A DNA stretch of 64,000 nucleotides from Kiritimatiellia bacterium (GCA_017652705.1 JAGCAM010000079.1:11475-75474), one strand, 5' to 3'. Positions 22,101-43,807 are shown, counted from the stretch's first letter. Notes: generated from the letters alone by a model not told the origin. Translations and numbers: made by a program.

Positions 22101-24380
22101 GGCGCCCTTCTCGTCCATGCGGAAATATTCGGGGTGAACGTCGAAAAGGTTGCGCGGCAGCAGCCAGCTGGCGGCGTGGATTTCATAGCCGATGTCGATG
22201 CCGAGGGCTTTGGCGCGGTCGATGAGGGCGCGGTAGCCGGGCTCTTTCAGTCTGGCGAGTGTTTTATCGAGCGCGACTTCGGCCTGGCCGCCGCCGCCGG
22301 GATGGATGGAAAGATTGTGGAGACCGAGATTCACCGCGCGGTCCACCCAGCGGTCGGAGAGTTCGTCGGTGCCGATTACGAGGGATGTTTTAAGCGCCCC
22401 GGCCGGCGGAGCGGCCGGCTTTTTTTCACGGAACCAGACCTGCATGTCGTTGCCGGGCTGGCGGTGGTCCCACGCGAAGTACGGTATCAGTTTCAGCCCG
22501 TTGGAAGCTTTGAGCGCGGGGAAGGTCTTGTCGCCGATCACGATGGTGTCGTCGGTGAAAGTGGCGTCTTCGGGAAGAACGGCGTCGTAGGCCGCGCCGC
22601 CGTTGTCGCAGCCTTCGGCGCAGTAGAGCATGGGGCCGCGTTCGACGGCGAGACGGCCGAGGTCGTCGACGACGGCGCGGTGGGCGCGGATACGCTTGAC
22701 CGGCATGGGGAAATTGACTTCGACTTTGTCGCCGGCCTTCCATTTTCTGTCGATGTCGATGTAGCCGTCTTTGCCCGGTGCGGGGTCAAGAGCGGCGCCG
22801 TTCACCGAGAGAGTGATTTCCTTGACGCTTGCGGGCACGGTCTGGGTGTACAGGTCGCCGGGCACCGGTTCACCTTTCGCCCAGCCGGGAACGCGGAGTT
22901 TTAGCGTGAACCGCTTTTCGGCGGCCGGGCTGACGGCCAGCGTTGCGCGGCCGTTCCACGGATATCCCGTGTCGCATTTGAACTTGACCCCTTCCACCTC
23001 GGCTTCGCCCTGCATGACGAGGTTCCAGAATATGTTCGCGCCGTCGGTCGCCCACGCGAAGGACGGTATCTGGGGGATGAAGCGGACGTCATTCACCGGG
23101 CAGCAGCTGCAGCCGAACCACTTCGAACGTCTGTAACCTCCTTTGCAGGCGAGCGGGTTGGGGTAGAAGTACTCGTCGCCGGTGAGTGACACGCCGGAGA
23201 GGAATCCGTTGTAGATGACCCGCTCGAGTATATCGACGTATTTGGATTCGCCGGAAAAGCGGAACATACGTTCGTTCCACAGGGCGTTGGCGATCGCGGC
23301 GCAGGTTTCCAGATAGGTCACGCGGTAGTCGTTGGGCAGCAGATAGTCGCGCTCGAACGCCTCGCCGCGGGGGGTTCCGCCGACGCCGCCGGTGAGGTGC
23401 AGCTTGCGACCAGAAACGTTGAGCCAGATGGCGGAAATCGCGTCGAGGTACGCCTTGTCGCCGGTGAGGGCGGCGACGTCGGCGACACCGCAGTACAGGT
23501 AGCCGGCGCGCACAGCGTGGCCGACCGCCTCGCGCTGGAGGACGACGGGCATGTGATCCTGGATGCCCGCGCCCGGGGCGACGATGGGGTCGACCGGTTC
23601 ACCGCCGGGGCCGACCGGCCGCCCGTCTTCGAGAGACCTGCCGCGGCCGCGCATTTCAATGAAGTGGCGCGCGAGGTTGAGATAACGCTTCCTGCCGGTC
23701 ACCCGGTAGAGCTTGGCGAGGGCGAGCTCGATTTCCTCATGGCCGGGCGCGTCTTTGAGCTGGGTCGGGTCGGGCCCGAACACGCGGCAGAAAAGATCGG
23801 CGGATTTTACGGCGACGTCGAGGAAATTGCGCTTGCCGGTGGCCCGGAACCACGCGCAGGCGGCTTCGATCATGTGCCCGTTGTTGTAAAGTTCGTGGCT
23901 GGAGCCGATGTTGGACCAGCGAACGGGGCCCATCATGCCGCTGCTGCCGCCGCCTTTGCTGAAGTGCCAGTGGCCGAGCGTTCTGGCGGTGTAGAGGTAG
24001 CCGTCTAATTCCTGCGCTTTGGCGAACTGACCGATAAGCCAGTCGCAGTATTTTTCAAGTTCGGGGTCGGGGTGGTTGGCGAGCACGTAGGCCGCCCCTT
24101 CCACCACCTTGAACACGTCGGAATCGTCGAAGGGAATTCCGCCGAACTTGCCGGCGCGGGCGGCGGCGTTGGTGAAGTTGGCGATGCGCGGCGTCTCGTT
24201 GCATTTGTCGAAACAGTTTTTGAGGGTGGAAAGACGGTTCGTCTCCAGCCGGTCGTACCAGAAGCCGCCGGTGACTCTGACCTTGGTCATGTCGGCGGAG
24301 CGGATCGGGTAGTCGTTGGCGGCGGCGGCCGCAGCGGCGGCAACGAACGCTGCGACGGCGACAGAGAGTTTCTTTTTCAT
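19131..24380 (-). CDS. 1749-aa secreted multi-domain glycoside hydrolase: GH127-like (beta-L-arabinofuranosidase fold) + DUF4838-like + GH2
   Basis: Signal peptide MKKKLSVAVAAFVAAAAAAAA. The N-terminal ~650 aa carry the GH127 ExC (YLETCAAI) and CC (FGCSCCPVN) zinc/catalytic motifs. Residues ~660-960 carry the DUF4838-like core (FRM...FCFSNP...WLDDVHGGVCKCEKCRGF). The C-terminal ~790 aa are GH2 (VRVPHDWAIAGPFN sugar-binding domain; TIM barrel NHPCVFTWSLGNE). Confidence 0.8.
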   Translation of the reverse strand: MKKKLSVAVAAFVAAAAAAAANDYPIRSADMTKVRVTGGFWYDRLETNRLSTLKNCFDKCNETPRIANFTNAAARAGKFGGIPFDDSDVFKVVEGAAYVLANHPDPELEKYCDWLIGQFAKAQELDGYLYTARTLGHWHFSKGGGSSGMMGPVRWSNIGSSHELYNNGHMIEAACAWFRATGKRNFLDVAVKSADLFCRVFGPDPTQLKDAPGHEEIELALAKLYRVTGRKRYLNLARHFIEMRGRGRSLEDGRPVGPGGEPVDPIVAPGAGIQDHMPVVLQREAVGHAVRAGYLYCGVADVAALTGDKAYLDAISAIWLNVSGRKLHLTGGVGGTPRGEAFERDYLLPNDYRVTYLETCAAIANALWNERMFRFSGESKYVDILERVIYNGFLSGVSLTGDEYFYPNPLACKGGYRRSKWFGCSCCPVNDVRFIPQIPSFAWATDGANIFWNLVMQGEAEVEGVKFKCDTGYPWNGRATLAVSPAAEKRFTLKLRVPGWAKGEPVPGDLYTQTVPASVKEITLSVNGAALDPAPGKDGYIDIDRKWKAGDKVEVNFPMPVKRIRAHRAVVDDLGRLAVERGPMLYCAEGCDNGGAAYDAVLPEDATFTDDTIVIGDKTFPALKASNGLKLIPYFAWDHRQPGNDMQVWFREKKPAAPPAGALKTSLVIGTDELSDRWVDRAVNLGLHNLSIHPGGGGQAEVALDKTLARLKEPGYRALIDRAKALGIDIGYEIHAASWLLPRNLFDVHPEYFRMDEKGARCRDKNFCFSNPEAMNIAGKRAVELAKALYGGNRRYCLWLDDVHGGVCKCEKCRGFSASDQQLIFANAIVTELRKFIPDAELCYLAYADAINPPEKVKPVKGVFLEYAPIKRDLGRPLADQNNGETKPLKALIEKFGSAGSRVLEYWFDNSLYSHWTSPVKLFRQAKDVVAADVEYYRLLGFEEISSFAVTLGDRNYVPLWGEPDLSAFARENVDSAFRSISLDGDAWEFRRGGSSAWSKVRVPHDWAIAGPFNHTNDYATGKLSWCGKGDYRRSFVWRKSGKPGERVYLEFDGVMARPKVKVNGKDAGGWDYGYASFILDVSALVVNGENSLEVSADTTDHKSRWYPGGGIYRSVRLVTRGDGHAIPGSVAITTPKISAAEATVNVSWRTLSGPKSASFKILKPRLWDVDDPYLYEYAVAGEKFRYGVRSVSVTTNGLFLNGRRLQIHGVNLHSDLGPLGMAFDRDAAKRQLLCMRDMGVNAVRTSHNCPAPQLLDLCDELGILVWDECFDKWDGTAGRLPGENLEEYVERNLKAFVRRDRNHPCVFTWSLGNEIYFNCEEYSQGTSRERCDRFRKAVLSEDSTRPVGIGCCYVKAVEKGDLDGLDLNGWNYGGSYRHMHARNPAMPLFYSESASAFSDYGFYRVPFAGNEEREGWSNTNNTEHGEWFRADVKNWKVDGYDQIAATWGDIADVEFDRMERDRYVCGEFVWSGIDYIGEPTPYTLWFLGASEFGSHYVKAAGRSFTVADTSRSSYFGAADICAIPKDRWHLYRSHWNKKAETVHILPHWNWNDHKGTKVPVYVYTSGDEAELFLNGRSLGRRRKGVVERNPALTNRYYEVCAKYRLRWFDVPYRPGELKAVAYRGGEKIGEAKMKTAGAPKAIRLTRDPYSAEGSDLVFVQIDAVDSKGNRSPVSDAKFDVLLKGPGEIAAVGNGDPRSMVSFKSLKGHSLWFGKAVVAVRRYRGTGDAPELTVTAPGLKPGTIKIAGR

Positions 24381-24410: not shown

Positions 24411-24902
24411 TCACAGATGTTTGATGTTGATTTTGCCTGTGGCGAGTCCCGGGGCCGATGCCGTCAGGGTGGCGGGGCCTTTGCCGGTGCGCCGAAGGAT
24501 TACCAGGGCCTTGCCGTGGAAAAGACGGTTGCCGGCGACGTCCTTGACCGAGTCGTAATCGCGTGGGTCGCCGTTGCCTACCGCTTCTATGACGGCGTCG
24601 CCGCGGACCGCGAAACCGACTCGGTCGCCGGCGTCGGGAACGCGCGTACCGGCTGCGTCCGCTTTCGCGGCGGTTTTCACGCTGGCCACGCCGATCTTCC
24701 TGCCCCTGAGATAGCGGACCGCCCTGAGTTCGCCCGGTTCCCACCGCACGTCAAACCAGCGCAAACGGTAGCGGCCCATAATCTTGTAATACGGGTTGTC
24801 GCGGCCTTTCCCGTTGAACTTGGCGACGTCGCCGCAGTCGCTGTGCAGCGGATAGTCGAGGCGGAGCTTCCGTTTCATTGGCCTTATTTTGTTTTGTCGC
24901 AC
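24411..24902 (-). pseudogene. stand-alone remnant of a GH2 C-terminal domain
   Basis: 163-aa ORF. ...YYKIMGRYRLRWFDVRWEPGELRAVRY...AVGNGDPRDYDSV...ASAPGLATGKINI aligns with the last ~165 aa of the GH2 part of the giant protein (YYEVCAKYRLRWFDVPYRPGELKAVAY...AVGNGDPRSMVSF...TAPGLKPGTIKI). No catalytic domain precedes it. Confidence 0.5.
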
Positions 24903-24912: not shown

Positions 24913-27669
24913 TCATTGCTCGACGAATTTCAGTACGCCGAAGGCGTTGAGATCGCTGTTGAAATTGCCGAACCTGTTGTAAAGCCGCGAAAGTTCCCAC
25001 ACCGAACCGGGGGTGCGCTTCGACTTGTCTTTGAGCCAGGCGTCGGCGATTCTCAGCCGCGCGATGTTGCCGTTCCAGTGGATGCCGCCCTGCGTGGTCG
25101 GTATTTTCGCGTCGGCGAAGAAACCGAGGTCGCTGTACGGTATGTAGATTTCGACCGACCAGGAGTCTTTGTTGATTTTCGCCCCGCTCTTCAGCCCCTT
25201 CGGTTCCCACTTCTTGGTCTGAACCCGCAACTGGTTGACGGCGTCGATCCAGAGTTTGAAATAGACGCCTTCAAGCTCGCCGGTGGGGTCGACGAAAATT
25301 TCAAGACAGTCGTTGCCCCACCAGTCGCCGGCCGGGTGCGAAGTCTGCAGGCGGTCGGGGGTCTTCTCCATGCAGGTGATGCCGAACACCACGCCTTGCG
25401 AAGTCCATACCGCCTGCACGTAAGTCGGATATTTCGCCACGGTGTTGGTGCGGCTGCCGCTGCCGTCGATACCCGCGAGCGCGCAGGAGAGCGGCTCGGC
25501 GAGCTTCCAGCACGGGTCGGAGAGGTCGCCGTCGATTTTCGGAAGTTCGGCGGCCTTGCGCATGTGCAGGTCGGGGAAGGCCTTGTTGTTGGCGTACTCC
25601 CAGCTTTCCCTGAAAAACCGCTCGAAGGGTTTGGCGTAGTAGGCGAGACGGTTCGAGGCGGCCGCATCGTCGGCGAGAGCCCTGAACGACTCTTTGATTA
25701 TGCGTTCCATCTCCTCCACCTCGGCGCGCGGGTAGCTGATGCCGAAAACGTTTTTGCTGGTGACGCTCGGCCGCTTCCACTGCCGTGCCCACCCTTTCTC
25801 CTGCATGTCGATAAGTTTGCGCATCGGCGCGGCGGCCTTGCCGAACATCCGACTGGCGAATTCGTCGTAGACGTCTTTCGCCTCGAAGCCGGGGTTCCAC
25901 ATCGCCCGCACCCAGACGTAGGCGGAGAGCCCGAGCCGGTCGACCGGATACCCCCCGTTCAGGAAAGATCCGCAGATCACGCCCTTCATCCTGCGGTAGA
26001 ATTCAACAGCGGTGCCGCCGAAAACGTAAGGGGCGCAAGTCCGGTCGGCCGGCCAGCAGATGTAGTGCCAGTTCTGCACGGGGTTGCCGGTCGCCTTCGC
26101 CCATTGGCGCATGAGCTCCTCCTCGTGTCTGCGGGCTGATTCCTGGGCGAGCAGCGCGAGGCCCGGCATGGTGCACAGAAACGCGTCCACGTTGCCTTCG
26201 GCCGTGAGATCGAGACCTTTGGGCACGTCGCAGGTGTTGATGTAGGGAAGTATGGAAATGCGCCAGTCGGGATATTTCCGCTTCATCCATTTGGCGAGTT
26301 CCTTGGTGAAATACCCCCAGATTATCGGCGAAGCGTCGCCCGTGGGCGCGGCTGACTTGTCCACGAGTTTTTTGCAGAAATCGCAGTGGCAGACGACGGC
26401 GGCGTCGTACTGCGAAACGGTTACGGTTTTGCGCTGCACGTCGACGGGGTCGCCCATAAAGCCGCGGCGTTTGCCCTCGACCGTCAGGTTGATGTGCTCC
26501 TTGTAGGTCTGCAGCGTGCGGGGGTTGCCGTAACAGAGCATGGCGGTGCGGGCGCGTTCGCCGTTTTCGGACAGGGCGAAGATTTCCGGTCGCCCCGTCC
26601 AGCGGCTCGGCTTGTAACCGAGATTGGGGTCGACGTGCCAGTAGCTCGGGGTGTGGACCCGGTGCGATGACTGGTGGGCGTCGCCGAATTTCCAGCCGCG
26701 GTGACCCGCTGCGAATTCGGTGCGGAATTCATAGACCGGTTTGTCCGACCAGTTGAACCGTGGCAGGGCGAGACCTTCCGTTTTGATAACGAGTTCGCCG
26801 ATCTTGCGGTCGGGGTAGTACTGGCGTACGCCGAGTATCCGTTCGGCGAAGTCGTAGACGGCGTAGCCGGAGGCGGTCGCATGCGCGCCGATGAGGAAAA
26901 CGTCCCCTCCTTTGGTGAGACAGCGGAAGGCGTGTGCGCCGACGCCCCACCGGGTGTCGGGGGTGCCGGGGCGGGTGACGCCGGCTTCGCGGGCGGCGAG
27001 GGTGTCGCCGATGTAGATCGCGCCGCCGCCGGTGTAGGCGGTGTTGGTGCCGAGATGGAGAACCGGCGGCTTGGCGCCGGTCATCTTTTCGATTATTTCA
27101 GCGAGCCACACCGCTTCGCCGCGCGCTTCGGCCGCCACGATCGGCATGCGGGCGACGCCGTCGGCGACGACCACGACCGGTTCCCCGCGAGGGGCCGAGA
27201 ACGCGGTGAGCGGGGTCAGGTCTTTGGCGCGCGGATTGCCGGGCGCGAGCTGCGCTCTGGATCCGTCCTCCGCGGTGACGAAACTCCCTTTCCGTTCCGC
27301 GGCGGCGGCCGAAGTCTTGGTGAAGTAGTTGGTGGCGAGCGCGGTACGCGACGTCCGGCGGTACGCCTCGAAGAGAACTGAATACTCACCGGCCGGCAGA
27401 TCTTCGACATGCAGCGAAAGCGCATTGCGCCCGACCCGCAAGGGAACCGACTGCGTGCGGAGCATCCTGCCGGACGCGTCGCGCAGCGTCATTTTCACGC
27501 TGTCGGCGGTGCAGACCGGAACCTTTGCCTCGAAGGCGACGTAGACGTCGTCCTTGCCGAGCGTCTGCCGGTCGCCCGAGGCGCCGGTAAATCCGACGGC
27601 CGGCGCCGCGGCGGCGGCGGCGGAAAGGATTGCCGCGGCGGCGAAAAGAACCTGTGCTGTCTTTGTCAT
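24913..27669 (-). CDS. secreted DUF4838-like (GH20-like) putative glycoside hydrolase with C-terminal CBM9-like domain
   Basis: 918 aa, signal peptide. Core motifs GNPRTLQTYKE, CHCDFCK, NWHYICWP. C-terminal KIDGDLSDPCWKLAEP...DCLEIFVDP...WSVEIYIPY matches the CBM9/DOMON-like fold. Confidence 0.6.
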   Translation of the reverse strand: MTKTAQVLFAAAAILSAAAAAAPAVGFTGASGDRQTLGKDDVYVAFEAKVPVCTADSVKMTLRDASGRMLRTQSVPLRVGRNALSLHVEDLPAGEYSVLFEAYRRTSRTALATNYFTKTSAAAAERKGSFVTAEDGSRAQLAPGNPRAKDLTPLTAFSAPRGEPVVVVADGVARMPIVAAEARGEAVWLAEIIEKMTGAKPPVLHLGTNTAYTGGGAIYIGDTLAAREAGVTRPGTPDTRWGVGAHAFRCLTKGGDVFLIGAHATASGYAVYDFAERILGVRQYYPDRKIGELVIKTEGLALPRFNWSDKPVYEFRTEFAAGHRGWKFGDAHQSSHRVHTPSYWHVDPNLGYKPSRWTGRPEIFALSENGERARTAMLCYGNPRTLQTYKEHINLTVEGKRRGFMGDPVDVQRKTVTVSQYDAAVVCHCDFCKKLVDKSAAPTGDASPIIWGYFTKELAKWMKRKYPDWRISILPYINTCDVPKGLDLTAEGNVDAFLCTMPGLALLAQESARRHEEELMRQWAKATGNPVQNWHYICWPADRTCAPYVFGGTAVEFYRRMKGVICGSFLNGGYPVDRLGLSAYVWVRAMWNPGFEAKDVYDEFASRMFGKAAAPMRKLIDMQEKGWARQWKRPSVTSKNVFGISYPRAEVEEMERIIKESFRALADDAAASNRLAYYAKPFERFFRESWEYANNKAFPDLHMRKAAELPKIDGDLSDPCWKLAEPLSCALAGIDGSGSRTNTVAKYPTYVQAVWTSQGVVFGITCMEKTPDRLQTSHPAGDWWGNDCLEIFVDPTGELEGVYFKLWIDAVNQLRVQTKKWEPKGLKSGAKINKDSWSVEIYIPYSDLGFFADAKIPTTQGGIHWNGNIARLRIADAWLKDKSKRTPGSVWELSRLYNRFGNFNSDLNAFGVLKFVEQ

Positions 27670-27683: not shown

Positions 27684-29771
27684 TCAGAACTTCACGGAAG
27701 TCGAGAGCGTATCGACGAAACCGGGCTGTCCGCCGCCGACGTAAACCGCGGTTTCACCCGAGGGCACCGTCGCTTTGCCGTCTTCGCCGAAAACCGCGAA
27801 CTGCTCGTTCAGCAGCGTGAAGGTGACGTTCCGCGACGCACCGGGGGCGATGCGAACGCGCGTGAACCCCTCAAGATGGTGCAGACGGCGGTCGCCGGCC
27901 GCGGCGGGGGCTTTCAGATAGAGCTGCACGACTTCGTCGCCGGCGAGCTTGCCGGTGTTTTTCACGTTGACGGTGATCTCTGCGCCGGACGCCGTCTTTT
28001 TGGCCCGGATGTCGGAGTAGGCGAAAGTCGTATAGGAAAGTCCGTAACCGAACGGATACGCCGGCTTTTTCGTGGCGTAGCGGTAGGTGCGCCCGACGAG
28101 GGTGTAGTCGGCGAACGCGGGAAGGTCGTCGTAGGATTTCGGGTAGGTGATGGGGAGCCTCCCGGCCGGGTTGTTTTTGCCGAATATCGTGCGGGCGACT
28201 GCGCGCCCCCCCTGTTCACCGGGATACCATGCGAGAATGACCGCGTCGGAATTTCTGACGACCGGCTCGAGATCGAACGGGCTGCCGCCGAAGATGACCG
28301 AGACTACGCACTTGCAGCTCTTGCGGTAGCCCTCAAGCAGTTTCAACTGGTTCTGGGGCAGCGAATAGGAGGTGCGGTCGCCGCCGGAATTGTTGACGCT
28401 GCACCCCTCCTCGCCTTCGTCTTCGGCGGTGATGCCGAGACAGACTATCGCGATGTCGCTGCCGTGGGCGCCTTCGGGCACGCCGATTACGCGAACCCCC
28501 GGGCCTGCCTCTTCGACCACCCCGGAGAAGACTGTTGACGGACGCGCAGCGTAGCCGCAGTAGTTGCCGATAAGAGCCACTTCGTCCATCGCGCGCGGAC
28601 CGACCACGCCCACGCAGACGGCTTTCTTGGGGTCGAACGGCAGTGCGCCGTTGTTGGAAATCAGCACGAGAGATTTCTCGGCGGCCTCAAGCGCGAGATC
28701 GCGGTTGGCCTCGGTCGCGACGTCCTTTTCGCCGAGGTGATCCCACGGCGTGGAACCGTTTCTGTCGAACTGGCCGAGCAGAACGCGGGTGTTGAGAAGC
28801 TGCACCAGCGGTCGCTTGAGCTCGTCGCCGGTGACCTTGCCCTCTTTAATGGCGTCGCGGAGGCAGGCGTAGGTGCCTTCCGAACAAAGGTCGAGACCGG
28901 CCGCGATCGCCGCTTTGCACGCCGCCACCCTGTCGGCGGTGAAATGATGTCCGGTGTGGATGTCGGCGACCGCGCCGACATCGCTGACGATATGGCCTTT
29001 GAAGCCCCATTCGCCGCGGAGGATGTCCGTGAGCAGTTCGCGGTTGGCGCAGCACGGCACGCCGTTGAGGGCGCTGTAGGCGCCCATGAACGCCTCGACT
29101 TTCGCGTGCATCGCCAACGTGCGGAACGCCGGCAGATAGTATTCGCGGAGATCCCGCGCCGAAACCTTGGCGTTGAACCCGTGGCGCAGACGCTCGGGCC
29201 CCGAATGCACCGCGAAGTGTTTGGCGCACGCCGCGGTTTTCAGATACTTTTTGTCGTACCCCTGCAGCCCGCGGACGTACGCTCCGCCCATTACGCCGGA
29301 GAGGTAGGGGTCTTCGCCGAACGTCTCCTGGCCGCGCCCCCAGCGCGGATCGCGGAACATGTTGACGTTGGGGCTCCACAGGGTAAGCCCTTTGTAGATT
29401 TCACGCTGGTCGCGTTCGCGGAAGAGGTTGTACTTGGCGCGCGTCTCGGTCGAGACGACGTCGCCGACGCGCTCCTGCAAGCCGGAGTCGAACGAGGCGG
29501 CCATGCCCATCGACTGCGGGAACACCGTGGCGAGACCGGCGCGGGCGATGCCGTGCAGCGCCTCGTTCCACCAGTGGTAGCGGGGAATCCCGAGCCTGTC
29601 GACGGCGGGGGAGTCCATCATCAGCAGATCGACGCGTTCCTCTGGGGAGAGTTGCTCGACCATCGTCCGCGCGCGCAGCTCGCATTCGGAACGGCGGTAG
29701 TCGGAAGGTATGGCTGCGGCGGATGCCGCGGCGAACGCGGCGATGGAACCAGCGGCTATTTTCATGTTCAT
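27684..29771 (-). CDS. GH3 beta-glucosidase/beta-xylosidase (BglX-like)
   Basis: 695 aa. GH3 N-domain (GFKGHIVSDVGAV with catalytic Asp region), C-terminal alpha/beta and FnIII-like domains. Signal peptide. Confidence 0.85.
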   Translation of the reverse strand: MNMKIAAGSIAAFAAASAAAIPSDYRRSECELRARTMVEQLSPEERVDLLMMDSPAVDRLGIPRYHWWNEALHGIARAGLATVFPQSMGMAASFDSGLQERVGDVVSTETRAKYNLFRERDQREIYKGLTLWSPNVNMFRDPRWGRGQETFGEDPYLSGVMGGAYVRGLQGYDKKYLKTAACAKHFAVHSGPERLRHGFNAKVSARDLREYYLPAFRTLAMHAKVEAFMGAYSALNGVPCCANRELLTDILRGEWGFKGHIVSDVGAVADIHTGHHFTADRVAACKAAIAAGLDLCSEGTYACLRDAIKEGKVTGDELKRPLVQLLNTRVLLGQFDRNGSTPWDHLGEKDVATEANRDLALEAAEKSLVLISNNGALPFDPKKAVCVGVVGPRAMDEVALIGNYCGYAARPSTVFSGVVEEAGPGVRVIGVPEGAHGSDIAIVCLGITAEDEGEEGCSVNNSGGDRTSYSLPQNQLKLLEGYRKSCKCVVSVIFGGSPFDLEPVVRNSDAVILAWYPGEQGGRAVARTIFGKNNPAGRLPITYPKSYDDLPAFADYTLVGRTYRYATKKPAYPFGYGLSYTTFAYSDIRAKKTASGAEITVNVKNTGKLAGDEVVQLYLKAPAAAGDRRLHHLEGFTRVRIAPGASRNVTFTLLNEQFAVFGEDGKATVPSGETAVYVGGGQPGFVDTLSTSVKF

Positions 29772-30397
29772 TTGACTTCTCCGTGTGGGATTTTAACCTT
29801 TGCGGGTTGAAAAATCATTTGAAGGCCACTTTCGCCGGCGCAAGGCCGTCGGAACTCGCGGTCAGTTCGGCAGCCCCTTCCGCACTCGATGCCCGCCCCC
29901 GGGTACCAGCGCGAAGCGTGGTTGTAGGTCGAACACGCGACGACGACGTGGTTCGACTTTGCCGCCAGCAGCCCGGTGACGTCCATCCGGAAACTCATGT
30001 AGCCGTAGTCCCAGCCGCCGGCCAGCCGCCAGTTGACGTAGCCTTTCGCGTCGGCCATGACGCCGTCGAATTCAAGGTAGGCTTTGTCGCCGTTCTCGAG
30101 CAGCGCCCAGTCCGCCGCCGGAATGTCGTCCACCCACCTGCGGTACATGTAGGCCCCCTTCCACGGCAGCTTGCCGGTGACCGGCCCGGCCAGGGGGTTG
30201 AACGGGCCTTCGATCGCGGCGTCGTGAGGCACTTCGACCTTTCGCCATCCTTCGGTCGGATCCGCCGCCTGGATGTTGCGCAGGTGGTCGCCGTTCAAGT
30301 CGCGGATGTACAGCCATCCGCCGTCGAGCGGAACCGTGCCCGCACCGGCGGCGAAGACGCCGCCGAGAACGGCGAGCGGAAAAATGATCTTTCGCAT
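29768..30397 (-). CDS. stand-alone GH2 N-terminal sugar-binding domain protein (secreted); possibly a gene remnant
   Basis: 209 aa. Signal peptide, then VEVPHDAAIEGPFNP...YLEFDGVMADAKGYVNWRLAGGWDYGYMSF...RWYPGAGI, a close paralogue of the GH2 N-domain in the giant protein. The frame ends 30 codons after RWYPGAGI with non-GH2 sequence. The stop TGA overlaps the GH3 ATG (ATGA). Confidence 0.55.
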   Translation of the reverse strand: MRKIIFPLAVLGGVFAAGAGTVPLDGGWLYIRDLNGDHLRNIQAADPTEGWRKVEVPHDAAIEGPFNPLAGPVTGKLPWKGAYMYRRWVDDIPAADWALLENGDKAYLEFDGVMADAKGYVNWRLAGGWDYGYMSFRMDVTGLLAAKSNHVVVACSTYNHASRWYPGAGIECGRGCRTDREFRRPCAGESGLQMIFQPAKVKIPHGEVK

Positions 30398-30400: not shown

Positions 30401-33400
30401 TCAGTTCTCGCGGAAGATGAACTTTGAAAAAGCTCCCGGATCGCTGTTGTAGCCGTTGCCGCGCGTATGCAGGCGGGACATCTCGGTGGTGTGCGGGGTT
30501 CGCTTGTTGAGCGGACGGATCGTCTTGTCGCCGCGGCGGAGGCGGATGAAGTTCCCCGTCCAGGACATGCCCCCTGAAGTCGTCGGGTGCACCGCGTCTT
30601 TGTAGAGCGCGATCATCGGCTTGTACGGCACGTAAAGTTCGATGCTCCACGACTTCTCGTTCTTCGCGATCGCGCAGCGGACGCCTTCCGGCCCCTGGGC
30701 CTTCTTGAAGCCGTCGTACCACTCGAACTTGCCGCTCGCGTTGATAATCACGCGGCCGAAAGCGCCGTAGTCGCCGCCGAGGTCGATCAGCGCTTCGACG
30801 CAGTCGTTGACCCAGTAGTTGCCGGTGGGGCCGTCGTTGCAGAGGTTCGCCATGTCGCTTTCGCGGCAGTCCATGCCGAACGTGACTGCGGTCGGCGTCC
30901 ACACCGCGCGTATCGACGTGCCCTCTTTCGGCGTCGTGCCCTCCTTGCGCGCGCCGGTGAACTCCTGCGCTTCGGCCAGCTTCCAGCAAGCGTCGTCGAG
31001 CTTGCCGTCGATCACGGGGTCCTGCGACACTTTCTGCATCATGAGCGGCGCAAAGGCGCTGCCGGCGGCGTATTCGGCCGATTCCTTGAAAAACTGCGTG
31101 AAGCCGCCTTTGTAGTAGGCGATGCGCTTCATGAGCAGCTCGTCGCCGGCGCAGAGCTGCTCTGCCTCGGCGAAGAGCCCCTCCATCCTCAGAACTTCCG
31201 CCCGCGGATAGGAAATCGTGTAGATGTTCCGGTTGTTGACGCGGGAGACCTTCCACTGCCGCTCCCAGCCTGTCTCCTGCAGGCGGACGATCTCGCGCAG
31301 CTGTTTCGCCGCGGGCCCGAACATGCGGTCGGCGAAGGTGTCGTAGACGGAGTCGATGTTCAGCTCGGGGTTCCACAGCAGGCGCATCCAGCAGTAGGCC
31401 GAAAGCACCAGCCGGTCTACCGGGTAACGACCGTTGAGAAAGCTGCCCGCTGTGATTTCGCGCGTGTCGCGGTAGTGGCGCTGGGCCGTCTTGGCGAAGA
31501 TAAACGGCGCCTGGCAGGTCTCCGCCGGCCAGCAGATGTAGTGCCAGTTCTGCACCGGCCGACCCGTCACCCGCGCCCAGTCGCGGATGAGTTGCTCCTG
31601 GAACTCCTTCACCGGCTTCTCCTTCAGCATGGCGAGACCGGGCATCGTGCAGAGAAACGCCTCGACGTTGCCCTCTTCGACGAAGTCCACCCCGTCGGGT
31701 ATGTCGGTCGTGTTGTGGTACGGCAGAATGACTATTTTCCAGCCGGGCAGTTCCTTCTTCGCCCACTTGGCGAGTTCTTTCGTGAAGTAGCCCCAGAGCA
31801 CGTTCGAAAAGCTCACGCGGCTTTCGGCGATGTTCTCCTGCGGGTGTCTGGCGAGTATCGCCTTGCAGTATTTGCAGTTGCAGAAAACGGCGATGTCCCA
31901 CTGCGAAACGGTGATGCACTTCGCCAGCGGTGCGGTGATGTCGCCGCGTGGCGAACCGCTGGCGATTTCGGCGAGGATGCGCTCCTTGTACGTTTCGAGG
32001 GTGCGGGGGTTGCCGTAGCAGAGCAGCGGCATCGTCGCCCGTTTGCCGTCGTCGGTCAGCGCGAAGATTTCCGGCCGCGTGAACATGAAGTTGAGGTTGG
32101 TGTTCCTGTTCCACGCCCCGGGCGCATGCACGTGGTGCTCTCCGCAGTGGCTGTCGCCGTTTTTCCACACCCGGCACCATTCGTTGCCTTCGTACGGCCA
32201 GAGGTCGCGCTTGGCGAAAACCGGCTTGTCGGAGTAACTGAACGCCGGCAGCGAAAGCCCGTATGTTTTCACCACAGTGCGGCCGCCGTTCTTGACGTCC
32301 CAGTATTCGCGCACGGCGAGGGCGCGCTCCGCGAAGTCGGTCGCCGCGTAATCGCACCGCGCGCCGCAAAGGTAGACCGACCCGTCTTTCACGCACACCT
32401 TGAACCCGTGCGCGTCGACGCCCCAGCGCTCGCGCTGGTAGGTGGCGAGCCCCGCGCGGCGCGTCGCCGCTACATCGCCTATGTAGATCGCCGGGGCGTT
32501 GGTGACCGGTCTGCCGCCGCACTCGCGCACGATCCTGAGCCTGGCGCCGGTCATGTCCTCGATCACCGAGGCGATGAACTGCGCGGCGAACTGCCCGTCA
32601 CGCGAATCTTCGCAGACGATGTCCATCGCCGGTATCGAGCCGAGAGCGACGGTCGCGCCGGCGCCGCCCAGCCAGCGGAAATCTTTCACCGGCGTCAGAT
32701 CGCGCGCGTTCACGTTCATCGGGGCGCGCTGCGCATGATAAACCCTGCGGCGGACGTCGTCGACGCGCACCACCGCCCCGCCGCGCTTGCCCGATTCCTC
32801 CGCGGCGGCCATGAGCGCGAAGATCTCGTCGGTTTCCTCGGAAGGGAAAGGCTTCACCCCGGTTTTGAAAAACTTGAGTATCTCCTCGAGCATCGGCGCG
32901 TAACCCTCGTATCCCCCGAGATCGACCACCCCCTTGTCGGCGGTGAACGCCTGGCCGGAGTAATTCCACATCCCGGGCCCGCGCATCATGCGCAGACCGC
33001 CGAATCTGCCGTCGCGCCATCTGACGGCCACGAAATCGTTGCTTTCGTTCGAAAAGCAGCTGACCGATTCGGCACCGACCCCCATCACCGCCACGAGCGG
33101 CTCGAAACCGTGGATGCCGTACCAGGTGAACCGCGAGTGGGTGCGCTCAAGCGGCGAGGGAGCAGCGTAGTTGACGCCGCGCACCACGCCCAGCTCCCCT
33201 TTGCGCGCCGCCTGCACCTTCGAAGTCCACCGCAGCGCGGAACAGCTGAAGAAATTGGCGTTGACCCGGCGCGCCTCGTCGAATATCCGGGTGGCGGACT
33301 GGTAGTCGCTGGCGAGGGGCTTGTCGATGAACACCCGCTTGCCGCTCGCGAAAACCTCCCGCGCCTGGGCCAGATGCTCGCGGCCGTCCTGCGTTTCAAG

Positions 33401-33721
33401 CAGCACCACGTCGCACTTCGCCAGCACGTCTTTGACGCTCGGCTCCATTTCAACGCCCATCTCCTTCATCTGCCCGATGTATTTCGGGTAGTTGTTCGTC
33501 ACCGCGGGTATCGTGCGCGAGCCGTACTTGTACGCGGCCACGACCCGGAAATCTTTGAATATCTCGCGGTCGCGCTTGACGTTGATGTGCCTGGTGAACT
33601 CGGTGGCGTGCGACGTGTCGACGCCGATGACGCCGATCTTGATTTCGCCGGCCGTCGGGGCGGCCGCGGCCGCCGCCGCCGCGAGAAGTGCGATTGAGCG
33701 AAGTGGTCTGTCCATTTTCAT
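30401..33721 (-). CDS. fusion protein: Gfo/Idh/MocA oxidoreductase domain + DUF4838-like domain + CBM9-like domain (secreted)
   Basis: Start chosen at the ATG of MKMDRPLRSIALLAAAAAAAAPTAG (signal peptide; GGAG RBS). Residues ~30-340 carry Rossmann IGVIGVDTSHA and VFIDKPLA (EKP-type) motifs. The rest parallels the 24913..27669 protein (CNCKYCK, NWHYICWP, C-terminal VIDGKLDDACWKLAEA). Confidence 0.7.
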   Translation of the reverse strand: MKMDRPLRSIALLAAAAAAAAPTAGEIKIGVIGVDTSHATEFTRHINVKRDREIFKDFRVVAAYKYGSRTIPAVTNNYPKYIGQMKEMGVEMEPSVKDVLAKCDVVLLETQDGREHLAQAREVFASGKRVFIDKPLASDYQSATRIFDEARRVNANFFSCSALRWTSKVQAARKGELGVVRGVNYAAPSPLERTHSRFTWYGIHGFEPLVAVMGVGAESVSCFSNESNDFVAVRWRDGRFGGLRMMRGPGMWNYSGQAFTADKGVVDLGGYEGYAPMLEEILKFFKTGVKPFPSEETDEIFALMAAAEESGKRGGAVVRVDDVRRRVYHAQRAPMNVNARDLTPVKDFRWLGGAGATVALGSIPAMDIVCEDSRDGQFAAQFIASVIEDMTGARLRIVRECGGRPVTNAPAIYIGDVAATRRAGLATYQRERWGVDAHGFKVCVKDGSVYLCGARCDYAATDFAERALAVREYWDVKNGGRTVVKTYGLSLPAFSYSDKPVFAKRDLWPYEGNEWCRVWKNGDSHCGEHHVHAPGAWNRNTNLNFMFTRPEIFALTDDGKRATMPLLCYGNPRTLETYKERILAEIASGSPRGDITAPLAKCITVSQWDIAVFCNCKYCKAILARHPQENIAESRVSFSNVLWGYFTKELAKWAKKELPGWKIVILPYHNTTDIPDGVDFVEEGNVEAFLCTMPGLAMLKEKPVKEFQEQLIRDWARVTGRPVQNWHYICWPAETCQAPFIFAKTAQRHYRDTREITAGSFLNGRYPVDRLVLSAYCWMRLLWNPELNIDSVYDTFADRMFGPAAKQLREIVRLQETGWERQWKVSRVNNRNIYTISYPRAEVLRMEGLFAEAEQLCAGDELLMKRIAYYKGGFTQFFKESAEYAAGSAFAPLMMQKVSQDPVIDGKLDDACWKLAEAQEFTGARKEGTTPKEGTSIRAVWTPTAVTFGMDCRESDMANLCNDGPTGNYWVNDCVEALIDLGGDYGAFGRVIINASGKFEWYDGFKKAQGPEGVRCAIAKNEKSWSIELYVPYKPMIALYKDAVHPTTSGGMSWTGNFIRLRRGDKTIRPLNKRTPHTTEMSRLHTRGNGYNSDPGAFSKFIFREN

Positions 33722-33876
33722 GACTCCGGTTAGTGGTTGTGGCTGTTCGATTCTCAAAGTCCAGAGCTGCAGACTCTGCCGTTCTGAAAGATATTTGTCG
33801 CGGAAACCGCGGGTGTGAAGCCAGCCTTCGGCGATGTTGGGCTTTTCAACATACCGCTCTCATCGCCGCACCGCCG

Positions 33877-35232
33877 TCAGCCGCGGAACCGCACCGGCGG
33901 CTCCCAGCCTTTCGCGTATTCGTCGCGGCACCACAGCTTCGCGGCAGCCCCTTTGTTCTGCAGCGCACCCGTCTTCGCGTCGAGCCGGATGGTTTCGCCG
34001 GTCGACCACGCCAAATTGGCGGTGTGCGCCATCTGCGTCGTCGCGAGCGACTTGTCCGGACCAGCGAAGCATAGTTTCGGATCCTTCGCGCGGATCGCGT
34101 CCACCCAGTTGCTGACGTGGTCGGTGTCCATGTAGCTCGCGCCGGTCGTGGACTGTATCCACTCGAACGCGCTCTGATCAAGCCACTTGCCGACGAGTTT
34201 GCTCTTGTTGTCGTACTGGAAAACCCCGTCCTGCGGGTGGAAAAGCACCGAACCGCCGGGGCCGAAGAACATGCACCCCGTGCCGATGTCGTGCGGCGCC
34301 TTCACGTTCGTCGACGAGAGGCATTCGAAAGTGATGATGCGCCCGTCGGCGAACTGGTAGCTCGCGTGCTGGGTGTCGGGCCATTCCCAGTCGTCGCCGG
34401 AGTGGAAGCACCTCGCGCCGAGCGAAACCGTCTTCACCGGGTAGTCCACGCCCATGCCCCAGCGGGCGATGTCGAGAAAGTGCGGCGAGTTGTTGCCCAT
34501 CTCGCCGGTGCCCCAGCGGCGGAACCAGTGCCAGTTGTAATGCACGTAATTGTCGTGGAAGTCCGTGCGCGGCGCCGGCCCCTGCCACATTTCCCAGTCC
34601 AGCCACTTCGGCGGGGCGACCTTCTTGCCGACGCCGATCGTCCCGCGGCGGGAGGTGTACCAGCAGCGTGCGTACTTTACATCGCCGATGAGCTCCTTGA
34701 GCCGCGGTATCATCTCGCGGTACACGCGCGAAGCGCGGCGCTGGCAGCCGATCTGCAGCACCTGGCCTGTCTTCTTCCACGTGTCGAGCAGAATCTGCCC
34801 CTCCTCGCCGTTGTAGCTGCACGGCTTCTCGACGTACACCGCCTTGCCCGCGAGCATGGCCATCCACGCCAGCGGCGCGTGCCAGTGGTCGGGCGTCTCG
34901 CAGATGATCCCGTCGATGTCTTTCATCTCGAGGATCTTGCGGATGTCCGTCGTCTGATAGGGCTTCTTGCCGGTGCGCTTCTCGACTTCCGCCACCGCCG
35001 CCGGCATCCCCTCCGGCCGCGTGTCGACGTCGCAGATCGCCGCCACTTCGACGCCGGGCGTCACCGACGCCGCGCGCATCACCCAAATGCCGCGGCACGC
35101 GCCGCGGCAGCCCATGACCGCCACCCGGACCCGGTTCGACGGAGCGCCCGCCCCGATGACGTTCTTCGCCGACGCGATGAAAAACGCGCCCGCCCCGCCT
35201 TTGATGAAGTTCCTTCTGTCCGTCTTGCTCAT
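33877..35232 (-). CDS. TAT-exported Gfo/Idh/MocA oxidoreductase (GH109-like / glycoside 3-dehydrogenase-like)
   Basis: 451 aa. Twin-arginine signal MSKTDRRNFIKGGAGAFF. Rossmann domain, EKP (VYVEKPCS) and a long C-terminal substrate domain as in GH109. Confidence 0.75.
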   Translation of the reverse strand: MSKTDRRNFIKGGAGAFFIASAKNVIGAGAPSNRVRVAVMGCRGACRGIWVMRAASVTPGVEVAAICDVDTRPEGMPAAVAEVEKRTGKKPYQTTDIRKILEMKDIDGIICETPDHWHAPLAWMAMLAGKAVYVEKPCSYNGEEGQILLDTWKKTGQVLQIGCQRRASRVYREMIPRLKELIGDVKYARCWYTSRRGTIGVGKKVAPPKWLDWEMWQGPAPRTDFHDNYVHYNWHWFRRWGTGEMGNNSPHFLDIARWGMGVDYPVKTVSLGARCFHSGDDWEWPDTQHASYQFADGRIITFECLSSTNVKAPHDIGTGCMFFGPGGSVLFHPQDGVFQYDNKSKLVGKWLDQSAFEWIQSTTGASYMDTDHVSNWVDAIRAKDPKLCFAGPDKSLATTQMAHTANLAWSTGETIRLDAKTGALQNKGAAAKLWCRDEYAKGWEPPVRFRG

Positions 35233-40455: not shown

Positions 40456-41189
40456 ATCAGGCCGGCTCCGTGGAGAGTGAGGGTGGGATCGATCGTGAAC
40501 GGCAGATCGAGGTCTTTCAGCACCCAGCCGGCGAAACCTCCGGTGGCGACGAGCTTGAAGTCGCATCTGAAATTGCGGCGGAGCTGGGCCGCGATTTCAC
40601 GCACCATGCCGCGGTAGCCGACAAGGGCGCCGAAACGCATCGCGCCGGCGGTGGAACGGCCGATTTTCGGCGCCCGGCCGGCGCCGATTTTCATGCGCGG
40701 CAGTTTCGCCGCGCGTTCGAAAAGATAGTCGCGCATCAGAGGAAAGCCCGGCGCGATCACCCCGCCGCGCCAAACCCGGTCGCCGGTGACTACCGCCGCG
40801 GTAAGGGCGGTGCCGAAGTCCATCACCAGCACCGGGGCGCCGTAGCGCGAAACTGCGCCGGCGGCGTCGGCGAGACGGTCGGCGCCGATCGTAGCGGGGT
40901 TCGGGTAGTCGAGAACTATCGAAGCGCCGCCGACGCGCCTTGTGAAATCCCGGTGCGACACCGGTTTGAAGTCGAAACCTGCCCGGGCCGAAAACTCGGC
41001 CCAGGCGCGGTCCGCCGCGGGCACGACCGAGACGTAGGCGAAGCGCTCGGCTTTCGGCGCGAGGCGCGACGCGGCGGCGATCGCCGCGTCACCAGCTCCG
41101 TCGAAGTGCTTCACGCAGCTCACACGGCCGTCGGACCACAGTCCAACGGCCGTCGAGGTGTTGCCCACGTCTGCGACGAGAACCCTCAC
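40437..41189 (-). CDS. coaX: type III pantothenate kinase
   Basis: GTG start giving (M)RVLVADVGNTSTAVG. Bvg-accessory-factor/CoaX fold motifs (MDFGTALT, VATGGFAG). The GTG overlaps the upstream TGA (GTGA). Confidence 0.8.
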   Translation of the reverse strand: MRVLVADVGNTSTAVGLWSDGRVSCVKHFDGAGDAAIAAASRLAPKAERFAYVSVVPAADRAWAEFSARAGFDFKPVSHRDFTRRVGGASIVLDYPNPATIGADRLADAAGAVSRYGAPVLVMDFGTALTAAVVTGDRVWRGGVIAPGFPLMRDYLFERAAKLPRMKIGAGRAPKIGRSTAGAMRFGALVGYRGMVREIAAQLRRNFRCDFKLVATGGFAGWVLKDLDLPFTIDPTLTLHGAGLICANRR

Positions 41190-42688: not shown

Positions 42689-43590
42689 TTTGTCCTCCAT
42701 TCCAATGTTAAATCTATGGAACCCGCCGAGTGGGTGAGGCAGCCGAGGGATATGGCCGTCACGCCGGTCGCGGCGACTTTGCGGGCGGTCGCCAGGGTGA
42801 TGCCGCCGGACGCCTCGGTCTTAACTCTGCCGCGGCACATGGCGACGCAGCGCTTCATGTCCGCGCACGACATGTTGTCGAGCATGATCCATTCCGGCAG
42901 CGCCTTGAGGGCGCTCGCGCACTCGCGCGGCGTTTCAACCTCCACCTCCACCGCGAGCCGCGGAAACTTCTTTCTGGCGGCGGCGACGGCGAGGTCAAGC
43001 GCGTCGGGATCGCCGCCGCGCCAGAGCCGGCGGTGGTTGTCTTTGATCAGCACCCGGTCGAACATGCCGAACCGGTGGTTCGAACCTCCGCCGCACAGAA
43101 CGGCGTATTTGTCGAACATCCTGAGCCCGGGGGTGGTCTTGCGGGTGTCGAGTATGACCGTGCCGTAGTGCGCCGTGGCGTCGACGAACTTCTTCGTGAG
43201 CGTGGCCGTCGCGCACATCCGCTGCATGAAATTGAGCGCGGTCCGCTCCGCCGCGAGAATCGATCTCGCTCTGCCGCGGAAGACGAGAATCGGCTCGCCG
43301 CCGCGCACCGTTGAGCCGTCCTTTTTGAGTATCCGCACTTTCACGGCATGATCCACCGCCTTGAAAACCGCAGCGGCCACGGTCGCGCCGGCGACGACGC
43401 AGCCGGCCCCTCGCGCGTATATCTCGCCGTCGGCGAAGACGTTCTCCGGCACCAGCGCCTCCGAAGTCGCGTCAATGCGCCGCCGGGACGCCGAACCGCG
43501 GCCTCCGGGCACGAGGTCTTCGTCCAGCGCGCGCAGGACGGCCTCTTTGGCCGGCGCGGAGCGCATAACGTCCTTCATCTTCGCGGCCAT
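42685..43590 (-). CDS. nadC: nicotinate-nucleotide pyrophosphorylase (quinolinate phosphoribosyltransferase)
   Basis: 301 aa. ...ERTALNFMQRMCATAT...ILDTRKTTPGLR...VLIKDNH motifs. Confidence 0.85.
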   Translation of the reverse strand: MAAKMKDVMRSAPAKEAVLRALDEDLVPGGRGSASRRRIDATSEALVPENVFADGEIYARGAGCVVAGATVAAAVFKAVDHAVKVRILKKDGSTVRGGEPILVFRGRARSILAAERTALNFMQRMCATATLTKKFVDATAHYGTVILDTRKTTPGLRMFDKYAVLCGGGSNHRFGMFDRVLIKDNHRRLWRGGDPDALDLAVAAARKKFPRLAVEVEVETPRECASALKALPEWIMLDNMSCADMKRCVAMCRGRVKTEASGGITLATARKVAATGVTAISLGCLTHSAGSIDLTLEWRTK

Positions 43591-43591
43591 C

Positions 43592-43807
43592 TCAGGCGGG
43601 CATCAGAAATTCCCAATGCTGCCAGAGAATGTAAGTCAGAATGCCGGCTGCGGCGAGGGCGATCAGCCCCGCGACGCCGGCGCAGGCCGCCGCCTTGCCG
43701 CCCCCTGACTTGCGCACGGTCGCGGGGTCGACGGGGTCGAGCCGCAGACGGTCCGCGATTGACACCCCGCCGGGCGCCTTGACCTTCATCGTCTTTTTTA
43801 TTTTCAT
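43592..43807 (-). CDS. small (71-aa) single-pass membrane protein, first gene of the nadC-containing operon
   Basis: MKIKKTMKVKAPGG...AAACAGVAGLIALAAAGILTYILW. Its stop is 1 nt from the nadC start. A perfectly spaced leaderless promoter lies immediately upstream. Confidence 0.45.
   Translation of the reverse strand: MKIKKTMKVKAPGGVSIADRLRLDPVDPATVRKSGGGKAAACAGVAGLIALAAAGILTYILWQHWEFLMPA

Follow-up and report, generated by a model that had tools for sequence, protein, structure and literature searches.

A gene at positions 30401-33721 on the minus strand of a 64,000-nucleotide stretch of DNA from a Kiritimatiellia bacterium (GCA_017652705.1 JAGCAM010000079.1:11475-75474), referred to here in its whole length as the window, encodes a secreted protein in which a Gfo/Idh/MocA-like module is fused to a DUF4838 hydrolase unit ending in a CBM9-like domain. 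The fusion is real and conserved, but rare and lineage-restricted. Its residues set the N-terminal module apart from the canonical NAD(P) dehydrogenases; it belongs to a family for which the name DTSH was coined in this analysis. The DUF4838-CBM9 unit is conventional and autonomous, with its conserved residues intact. As the main explanation, held tentatively, we propose a Koshland-type DUF4838 hydrolase joined to an NAD-independent DTSH partner of the adjacent 3-dehydrogenase, with both working on the same glycan.

The gene lies in an unbroken minus-strand open reading frame (ORF; 30401..33757) with a TTG start, in which an internal ATG at 33721 gives a protein of 1106 residues and the stop codon occupies 30401-30403. 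Its GC content at third codon positions (GC3) was 0.86, in line with the rest of the window's genes, and the minus strand carries every gene that was called there. The identical protein is present in the database as 'MAG: DUF4838 domain-containing protein [Kiritimatiellae bacterium]' (MAG, metagenome-assembled genome) on a 101-kb contig (P0001). Four more 90%-identity clusters (P0002-P0005) are 71, 55, 55 and 54% identical to the query over 99% of its length and have the same Pfam architecture, and their loci are on separate metagenome contigs with different neighbour genes. Because these four orthologue clusters on independent contigs share one architecture, and the ORF is continuous, a frameshift or assembly artefact was ruled out. 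The leader of the query is of the Sec type, and those of the orthologues are classic Sec leaders such as MKKLIFTVVALAGAVGLAGE. The original prediction of one secreted polypeptide of about 1100 residues was thus borne out, and the fusion is not unique to one genome. Among 5.8 billion sequences, DTSH-DUF4838 fusions amount to five clusters and one alternative architecture, DUF4838-DTSH-Melibiase (P0008), which is independent of the query arrangement. A GH127 gene lies downstream of the latter protein at its locus (L087). The host of the fusion protein is a glycan-degrading Kiritimatiellae bacterium of the ruminant-gut type. A scan for promoters and terminators was uninformative, with counts at shuffle level.

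In the Pfam search, GFO_IDH_MocA matched residues 27-155 (E 1e-8) and DUF4838 matched residues 488-812 (E 2e-25; 90.1 bits, gathering score 26.6; spanning 14-324 of the 325 profile positions), both above their gathering scores. The AlphaFold2 model, made from a composite alignment of 77 sequences, had a mean predicted local distance difference test score (pLDDT) of 92.3 and a predicted template modelling score (pTM) of 0.87, and disorder was limited to one loop and the first 22 residues, where the pLDDT of the signal region fell below 50. Since this pTM is high for a chain of 1106 residues, the model suggests that the domains hold a fixed mutual arrangement. Residues 346-487 have no Pfam match of their own, and their beta-alpha elements were modelled at high pLDDT. 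At the C-terminus, CBM9_1 (PF06452) matched residues 881-1106 of the query with E 0.0024 and 18.2 bits, under the gathering score of 23.4; the homologues P0122-P0126 (44-45% identical) clear that score at the equivalent place with 25-34 bits. The domain has the CBM9 beta-sandwich fold, although it is merely 12-18% identical to Thermotoga maritima Xyn10A CBM9-2 (1I82) and the Caldicellulosiruptor CBM9 (7NWO), and it contains the invariant residues Trp913, Trp941 and Trp1054. Pfam and the model together confirm the predicted order of a Gfo-like, a DUF4838 and a CBM9-like part. For the last of these, the fold and the homologue scores speak for the assignment, but the query itself stays below the Pfam threshold.

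The N-terminal module had been described as a complete Gfo/Idh/MocA Rossmann/EKP module, of which the fold stood and the signature residues did not. It has the two-domain Gfo/Idh/MocA fold, an N-terminal Rossmann domain followed by a C-terminal alpha/beta sheet, and its closest structural neighbours all bind the nucleotide NAD(P). However, the query lacks GxGxxG/A and has Asp at the place of the second Gly, its EKP counterpart reads DKP, and the acidic residue at the end of beta2, which touches the adenosine ribose in NAD-binding members (Ser/Arg in NADP-binding ones), is missing. Profile alignments make the Gly loop of DTSH 3 residues shorter than that of 3EZY and of the dehydrogenases exported by twin-arginine translocation (TAT), and place 'VVAAY' of DTSH opposite 'ICDVD' of the dehydrogenases, followed by a gap (hhalign; residue-level certainty moderate). 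His204 aligns with the catalytic His, the DKP Lys and the Arg are kept, and the position of the catalytic Asp is an invariant Trp. Against solved Gfo/Idh/MocA structures the alignment of the DTSH profile began only at about position 63 (best E 4.5e-10), and against the neighbouring dehydrogenase family the profile-profile alignment was significant over the full length (probability 99.1%). Because the loop and the beta2 acid are both lacking, DTSH should not be classed among the NAD(P) oxidoreductases until experiments support it.

Comparison with characterised relatives gives the same picture. The canonical Gfo/Idh/MocA enzymes TM0414 (3EZY), 1,5-anhydro-D-fructose reductase (2GLX/4KOA), WlbA (3Q2K), GenD2 (6NOR) and the inositol dehydrogenases have in common with DTSH the two-domain fold, the (E/D)KP Lys, a conserved Arg following beta6 and a His in the C-terminal domain. 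They are only 12-19% identical to it, with the N-terminal 60 residues not significantly alignable in sequence, and DTSH has replaced their Gly-rich loop, beta2 acid and catalytic Asp, whereas the motifs DTSH, GSxDIxSSxxR, LLETNDGRPH and THPDxxWYGIHGxE are new and invariant. Among the NAD-dependent glycosidases of the Gfo fold, which include the GH109 alpha-N-acetylgalactosaminidases (2IXB, 6T2B) and 8QC2, the GH109 proteins keep a Gly-rich loop and bind NAD tightly. In contrast with GH109, DTSH has GxDTSH, is devoid of the beta2 acid and is often exported by Sec. The C-terminal domain of GH109 (PF21252) was not detected in the query.

The DTSH family became apparent in the whole-protein search, where more than 100 proteins had just the first ~310 residues in common with the query at 40-55% identity. 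About 100 alignment columns of the family are at least 90% conserved, and GxxGxD(T/S)xH is present in 119 of the 145 best family representatives, with the loop consensus G-L-D-T-S-H (G33-V-D-T-S-H38 in the query). In the family G-x-I-G-x-D-T-S-H replaces GxGxxG, AAYPxGSxDIxSSxxR comes after beta2, and LLETNDGRPH replaces 'TPxxxH'; FIDKP, FSSSxLR and THPDxxWYGIHGxE are further hallmarks. All core motifs are present in the query, which deviates at four polar positions with a family conservation of 90% or more (S73A, S74V, R77N and N111Q), and the fusion orthologues, down to 54% identity, keep 84-90 of 100 family-conserved module positions. The family profile A1 scored 483 bits with the query as opposed to 21 bits or less with the canonical Gfo proteins of the window, in which the query gene is the sole member of the family. 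Searching 1.84 billion cluster representatives, we found 884 proteins at E<=1e-30, many of them stand-alone proteins of 300-350 aa. GTDB species genomes contain at least 589 loci encoding DTSH, the best 80 of which are from Kiritimatiellae, Lentisphaerae, Verrucomicrobia, Planctomycetes and many Bacteroidota. No NCBIfam model gave a meaningful score for the family, and neither the family nor the operon of DTSH, dehydrogenase and nag genes is described in the curated models and open-access papers that we searched. Nothing relevant to a periplasmic GlcNAc 3-dehydrogenase system appeared in the open-access literature, and a paper on S. maltophilia 'NagX' was dropped as a lead, as it concerns a GH20 enzyme.

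DTSH is usually a stand-alone exported protein. In fusions, the module is placed at either terminus of unrelated partners, comprising WD40/PD40, DUF1080, GH28, BNR/sialidase-like, M14 and S9 peptidase-like or esterase-like, GDPD, ceramidase-like (P0106), SSF transporter, PF16490 and DUF4838 proteins. WD40/PD40 propellers from Planctomycetes are the majority of the fusions, DTSH+DUF1080 fusions form at least 8 clusters, and fusions with a GH109-like dehydrogenase form 14 clusters with a TAT signal. Because the module fuses so promiscuously, the Rosetta-stone argument of the original prediction is weak where it concerns DUF4838 specifically. As for the WD40 fusions, P0013-P0118 are mostly from Planctomycetes, are about 690 aa long with an N-terminal WD40/PD40 propeller and a C-terminal DTSH module, and account for most DTSH fusions in the database. 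At the three of their loci that were inspected (L052, L056 and L063) no dehydrogenase is nearby, and the role of these proteins falls outside what a glycoside-pathway model explains.

This promiscuity, which extends to a membrane transporter, would suit a different explanation in which DTSH is a non-catalytic pseudo-enzyme that gathers hydrolases, DUF1080 lyases, transporters and propellers into a complex, either for docking or oligomerisation, with the Gfo dimer interface recruiting the TAT 3-dehydrogenase, or as a sugar-binding module. The lost NAD motifs and the adjacency to or fusion with dehydrogenases would suit it too, as would the pTM of the model, which suggests rigid packing between the module and the domains joined to it. 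However, the most strongly conserved residues (DTSH, ETNDGRPH, DKP, SLR and GIHGxE) are polar or charged and lie in the former cofactor and substrate cleft, off the beta-sheet dimer face, in a pattern typical of a ligand or catalytic site, and stand-alone DTSH genes are placed in operons as enzymes are. On balance we regard a non-catalytic role as rather unlikely.

Genomic context couples DTSH to glycoside dehydrogenases. Directly upstream of the fusion gene, after a gap of 119-155 nt, lies the gene 33877-35232, whose best NCBIfam match was BT_2158_fam 'glycoside 3-dehydrogenase' with 110 bits against a cut-off of 750, far below equivalog level, and whose best PDB matches were 8TDF (AL3; E 8e-18) and 8TDH (E ~1e-17). 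By these similarities its product appears to be a distant relative of the BT2158/AL3 glycoside 3-dehydrogenases, and it is likely the functional partner of the DTSH module. Homologues of this gene stand directly upstream of the fusions at L082 (P0003; 54% identity) and L087 (P0008; 48%). Among stand-alone DTSH loci, a BT2158-like TAT Gfo/Idh/MocA gene of ~450 aa is the immediate neighbour in 28 of 68 and within 2 genes in 32 of 68, and a nag gene is found at most 5 genes away in 28 of 68. The recurrent neighbours are NagP-like, NagA-like and NagX-like proteins, LacI regulators, SSF transporters and sulfatases, and the typical Bacteroidota operon reads LacI>DTSH>dehydrogenase>NagP/SSF>NagA, without a TIM-barrel lyase or DUF1080. 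The stand-alone proteins nearest to the query module, at 52-56% identity, come from Kiritimatiellae, Lentisphaeraceae and one Verrucomicrobia MAG, and are paired with the dehydrogenase in either order at L003-L005 and L009, but not at L002. Fusions of DTSH with GH109-like dehydrogenase, DUF1080, SSF and ceramidase-like domains echo these operon neighbours. The dehydrogenase half of one such fusion (P0063) was considered as a member of the operon-neighbour subfamily and rejected, being GH109-like with 34% identity over 137 aa to the gene 33877-35232.

A second operon type, LacI>DTSH>DegT-like aminotransferase (with a twin-arginine signal)>neutral-ceramidase-like amidase, was observed at nine Bacteroidota loci (L021, L028, L045, L049, L050, L053, L054, L071 and L074). 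It implies a periplasmic pyridoxal phosphate (PLP) enzyme whose substrates would be amino sugars or N-acyl compounds, and the ceramidase-like+DTSH fusion P0106 mirrors it.

No DUF4838 gene was found near stand-alone DTSH at 80 loci (hidden Markov model (HMM) of the DUF4838 unit; called proteins of at least 90 aa). Conserved adjacency of DTSH and DUF4838 genes did not appear outside the fusion clade in this search, so that the link between DTSH and DUF4838 is specific to the fusions. This absence of adjacency, together with the rarity of the fusion, the loss of four conserved polar residues specifically in the query and the rampant multidomain shuffling in the window, for example in its GH127-DUF4838-GH2 protein and its GH2 remnants, could mean that the fusion is functionally incidental, a lineage-restricted merger of neighbouring genes without mechanistic coupling in which the DTSH module is drifting. 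Against it count the retention of the fusion down to 54% identity, with 84-90 of 100 family-conserved module positions intact in its orthologues, the independent architecture of P0008, which likewise stands behind a homologue of the gene 33877-35232, and an interdomain arrangement that was modelled confidently. We consider an incidental merger improbable.

Residues 346-1106 form one unit composed of the alpha/beta domain, the DUF4838 barrel, the helical bundle and CBM9. As stand-alone proteins of 730-830 aa, this unit occurs in about 90 clusters without a Gfo module, at 35-49% identity and 96-100% coverage, and the paralogue 24913-27669 in the window is such a stand-alone unit with 44% identity to that of the query. 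The query holds 85 of 89 near-invariant residues of the DUF4838-unit clade, including His532, Asp609, Tyr728 and Cys691. The last is a fourth invariant Cys that goes with Cys614, Cys616 and Cys619 of the CxCxxC motif, and the four probably form a Cys4 metal site. DUF4838 proteins are encoded elsewhere in the window at 7992-9929, 19131-24380 and 24913-27669, and CxCxxC is present in all four including the query, just as predicted.

Two claims about DUF4838 have to be abandoned. The domain had been called uncharacterised, but PF16126 covers GH163, with BT1035, an endo-beta-GlcNAc-ase for complex N-glycans, and GH185, with Sp_0475, a 6-sulfo-beta-GlcNAc-ase (PMC10570127). Both enzymes are retaining and use substrate-assisted catalysis free of any cofactor, with no NAD, and the key residues of Sp_0475 are Gln174, His227, Asp309 and Tyr436 (PMC10570127). 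It had also been suggested that DUF4838 needs a transient oxidation step in cis. Because the DUF4838+CBM9 unit exists in about 90 Gfo-free clusters, including the paralogue in the window, it does not need one, and the characterised enzymes are NAD-free. The query resembles GH163 and GH185 in its PF16126 TIM barrel, which scores far above the gathering score, in its secretion and in its C-terminal carbohydrate-binding-type domain, which is F5/F8 in BT1035 and CBM9 in the query. His532, Asp609 and Tyr728 resemble His227, Asp309 and Tyr436 of Sp_0475 in order and spacing (compared by spacing, not by alignment). The CxCxxC+C cluster sets the query clade apart, and a Gfo-like module is not described for the characterised enzymes. 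As the sequence-similarity network of PF16126 is highly diverse (PMC10570127), the specificity of the query may differ from that of BT1035 and Sp_0475. A PDB sequence search with the DUF4838+CBM9 unit gave no match.

The known oxidative pathway, encoded by BT2156-2160 and AL1-AL5, combines a glycoside 3-dehydrogenase, exported by TAT with its NAD bound, with a lyase of the TIM-barrel type and a DUF1080 lyase/hydratase (bioRxiv 10.1101/2024.03.25.586180; PMC8121099). The system described here resembles it in that the gene upstream of the fusion encodes a TAT relative of BT2158/AL3, and in that DTSH elsewhere adjoins such dehydrogenases and fuses with DUF1080. It differs in that DTSH matches no described component, with no BT_2158 or BT_2159 NCBIfam match, and in that DTSH operons carry nag genes without the TIM-barrel lyase and DUF1080. 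Identification of DTSH with BT2159/AL4 was rejected, since there is no BT_2159_fam match and AL4 is cytosolic. In the window, sets like those of the canonical 3-keto pathway lie at 58558-62482 and 41186-46315 (minus strand), each with a TAT Gfo/Idh/MocA gene followed by a TAT xylose-isomerase-like TIM barrel, and DUF1080 proteins, one of them with two DUF1080 repeats, are near both. The stand-alone TAT-exported Gfo/Idh/MocA enzymes and DUF1080 hydrolase genes expected in the window are thus present. The third TAT-Gfo gene (33877-35232) is followed by the DTSH fusion in place of the TIM barrel.

We propose that the DUF4838-CBM9 unit would cleave linkages of the beta-N-acetylhexosamine (HexNAc) type by a substrate-assisted, Koshland-type mechanism free of a redox cofactor, by analogy with the characterised members. 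DTSH would have given up NAD(P) binding, keeping the Lys, Arg and His of the sugar site and gaining a conserved cleft rich in Asp, His and Glu. It would be a lyase/hydratase-like or other keto-sugar enzyme, independent of NAD, acting on products of the dehydrogenase encoded by 33877-35232, and would fill the place that the TIM-barrel lyase holds beside the other two TAT-Gfo genes of the window. The fusion would go back to a merger between a stand-alone DTSH gene, placed downstream of the dehydrogenase, and the DUF4838-CBM9 gene that came after it, and would tether a hydrolytic enzyme to an oxidative module, both on the same HexNAc-containing glycan. Because the DTSH family is coupled genomically to BT2158/AL3-like dehydrogenases, DUF1080 and GH109-like domains, it is plausible that the hydrolase is linked to the oxidative route, but by way of a partner module and not of a dehydrogenase acting in cis. 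DTSH probably serves the oxidative processing of amino-sugar glycosides as a partner that does not depend on NAD. A fuller version, which we find doubtful in its entirety, makes DTSH a new NAD-independent and possibly metal-dependent family that carries out non-redox elimination and/or hydration, or another 3-keto step, in a two-component periplasmic HexNAc/amino-sugar pathway with BT2158/GH109-like TAT dehydrogenases, feeding NagP/SSF and NagA; the fusion would then couple this family to a GH163/185-like hydrolase.

Several points weigh against the proposal of an NAD-independent partner. A missing GxGxxG does not prove that NAD(P) binding is missing, and 1,5-anhydro-D-fructose reductase, which is among the structures closest to the DTSH module, binds NADP via a non-canonical loop. 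In stand-alone Bacteroidota DTSH proteins, 41 of 50 had TAT and 9 had Sec signals by a simple regular-expression classification, as would be expected for cofactor-bound export. Because most Bacteroidota copies carry TAT, and in view of the atypical loop of the anhydrofructose reductase, the position that DTSH without GxGxxG certainly has no NAD was softened. Of the 6 fusion loci, L001, L083 and L084 lack the dehydrogenase upstream, and just the window, L082 and L087 have it. Most DTSH fusions in Planctomycetes are to WD40 propellers, with no dehydrogenase nearby at the three loci inspected. The HexNAc specificity of the query DUF4838 clade would be extrapolated from two distant characterised members, and because of S73A, S74V, R77N and N111Q, the DTSH site of the query itself may be altered or relaxed.

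The TAT signals of the Bacteroidota copies would also be in keeping with DTSH as a true NAD(P) oxidoreductase with an atypical loop, for instance a keto-sugar reductase or an epimerase-like enzyme, that acts on the glycan handled by DUF4838 or on its product. This is a softened form of the original prediction. The fold is complete, all close structural neighbours bind NAD(P), the DKP Lys and the catalytic His are kept, and the second operon type pairs DTSH with a TAT DegT-like aminotransferase whose keto-sugar would need reduction. Against this stand the Asp at the second Gly of GxGxxG, the short loop and the lost beta2 acid, and the lack of any redox step in the characterised DUF4838 enzymes. 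Export argues in the same direction: the fusion protein, its orthologues and nearly all copies from the Planctomycetes-Verrucomicrobia-Chlamydiae (PVC) bacteria use Sec, with 16 of 17 stand-alone PVC proteins classified as Sec and 1 as TAT by the same simple regular expressions. Near-homologous stand-alone DTSH proteins (L002-L081) thus take different export routes by phylum. The multidomain DTSH fusions that we inspected have Sec leaders, except for the TAT clusters with a GH109-like dehydrogenase. The periplasm has no NAD(P) pool, and Sec-exported proteins fold there. AL3, a characterised periplasmic enzyme with tightly bound NAD, has a TAT signal, and the same genome exports canonical Gfo enzymes by TAT: the three in the window carry RRxF signals, whereas the fusion protein has a Sec leader. 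We hold an NAD(P)-dependent DTSH of this kind to be unlikely. With all of this evidence on the module weighed together, NAD independence is somewhat more probable than NAD binding. As a speculation, a metal acquired in the cytoplasm would also fit both the cleft rich in His, Asp and Glu and the TAT export seen in one phylum.

Coordinates of the features of the fusion protein and of the upstream gene are given in the table.

Table. Features of the DTSH-DUF4838-CBM9 fusion gene and the gene upstream, in window coordinates
Feature	Position	Strand	Basis or remark
Sec-type signal peptide, aa 1-25 (MKMDRPLRSIALLAAAAAAAAPTAG)	33647..33721	-	read from sequence; without twin arginine
'DTSH' module, aa 26-337	32711..33646	-	Gfo/Idh/MocA two-domain fold, cofactor cleft remodelled
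G33-V-D35-T-S-H38, family hallmark in place of GxGxxG	33608..33625	-	sequence and family alignment
D133-K134-P135, EKP counterpart, invariant in DTSH family	33317..33325	-	family alignment
N-terminal alpha/beta domain of DUF4838 unit, aa 346-487	32261..32686	-	part of conserved 761-aa unit
DUF4838 (PF16126) TIM-barrel glycoside-hydrolase domain, aa 488-812, GH163/GH185-related	31286..32260	-	Pfam
C614-N-C616-K-Y-C619 (CxCxxC)	31865..31882	-	sequence; putative Cys4 metal site with C691
Helical bundle, aa 813-886, joining barrel to C-terminal domain	31064..31285	-	model helices H789-819 through H875-886
CBM9-fold beta-sandwich, aa 887-1106, and stop codon	30401..31063	-	CBM9_1 match in Pfam, below gathering score
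451-aa Gfo/Idh/MocA oxidoreductase, TAT signal (DRRNFIK), upstream gene	33877..35232	-	Pfam GFO_IDH_MocA and C-terminal domains

GH20, GH29, GH3, GH127 and Laminin_G proteins are among those encoded by the context genes. The gene 19131-24380 (minus strand) encodes a protein of 1749 aa in which a three-domain GH127 beta-L-arabinofuranosidase is joined to an incomplete DUF4838 domain, which has CxCxxC, and to a full GH2. Two short ORFs look like remnants of one GH2 gene, an N-terminal one at 29768-30397 (minus strand; 209 aa, GH2_N and signal peptide) and a C-terminal one at 24411-24902 (minus strand; 163 aa, DUF4982+GH2_C5), which are 49% and 41% identical to the matching GH2 parts of the gene 19131-24380. 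Between them today lie a GH3 gene and the DUF4838 paralogue; the gene could have been split or disrupted, something could have been inserted, or the MAG could be mis-joined. Two large exported proteins are encoded on the minus strand, one of 1429 aa (51420-55709) with no Pfam match at E<=1e-3 and one of 1672 aa (46361-51379) whose sole Pfam match is CBM9_1 at the N-terminus. A 508-aa protein of the ADP-ribosylglycohydrolase family with a signal-peptide-like leader (55741-57267, minus strand) lies amid the glycan-degradation genes. In the related locus L086, a stand-alone DUF4838 protein (P0165) is encoded two genes downstream of a TAT Gfo/Idh/MocA gene whose product is 25% identical to that of 33877-35232, and is flanked by two GH29 fucosidase genes and by a Laminin_G_3 protein. 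At L082 the fusion is followed by a pair of Laminin_G_3 and GH20 genes, a setting similar to that of L086.

The hydrolase and carbohydrate-binding parts of the fusion are of known kinds, and the protein is already public under a generic name. In itself it is of modest practical value, as one more multidomain carbohydrate-active enzyme (CAZyme) of gut Kiritimatiellae, and it offers a convenient single polypeptide for testing the effect of the module on a GH163/185-type enzyme. An annotation trap is corrected, in that DTSH proteins are labelled 'Gfo/Idh/MocA family oxidoreductase' though the dinucleotide-binding signature is gone. The parts of the oxidative (3-keto) route known so far, which were described recently, are the dehydrogenase, the TIM-barrel lyase and DUF1080. 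Because DTSH is found in hundreds of Bacteroidota and PVC species, is absent from the models and papers that we searched, lies next to dehydrogenase and nag genes and occurs in fusions, the family is a concrete candidate for an undescribed component of the oxidative route, possibly in an amino-sugar version.

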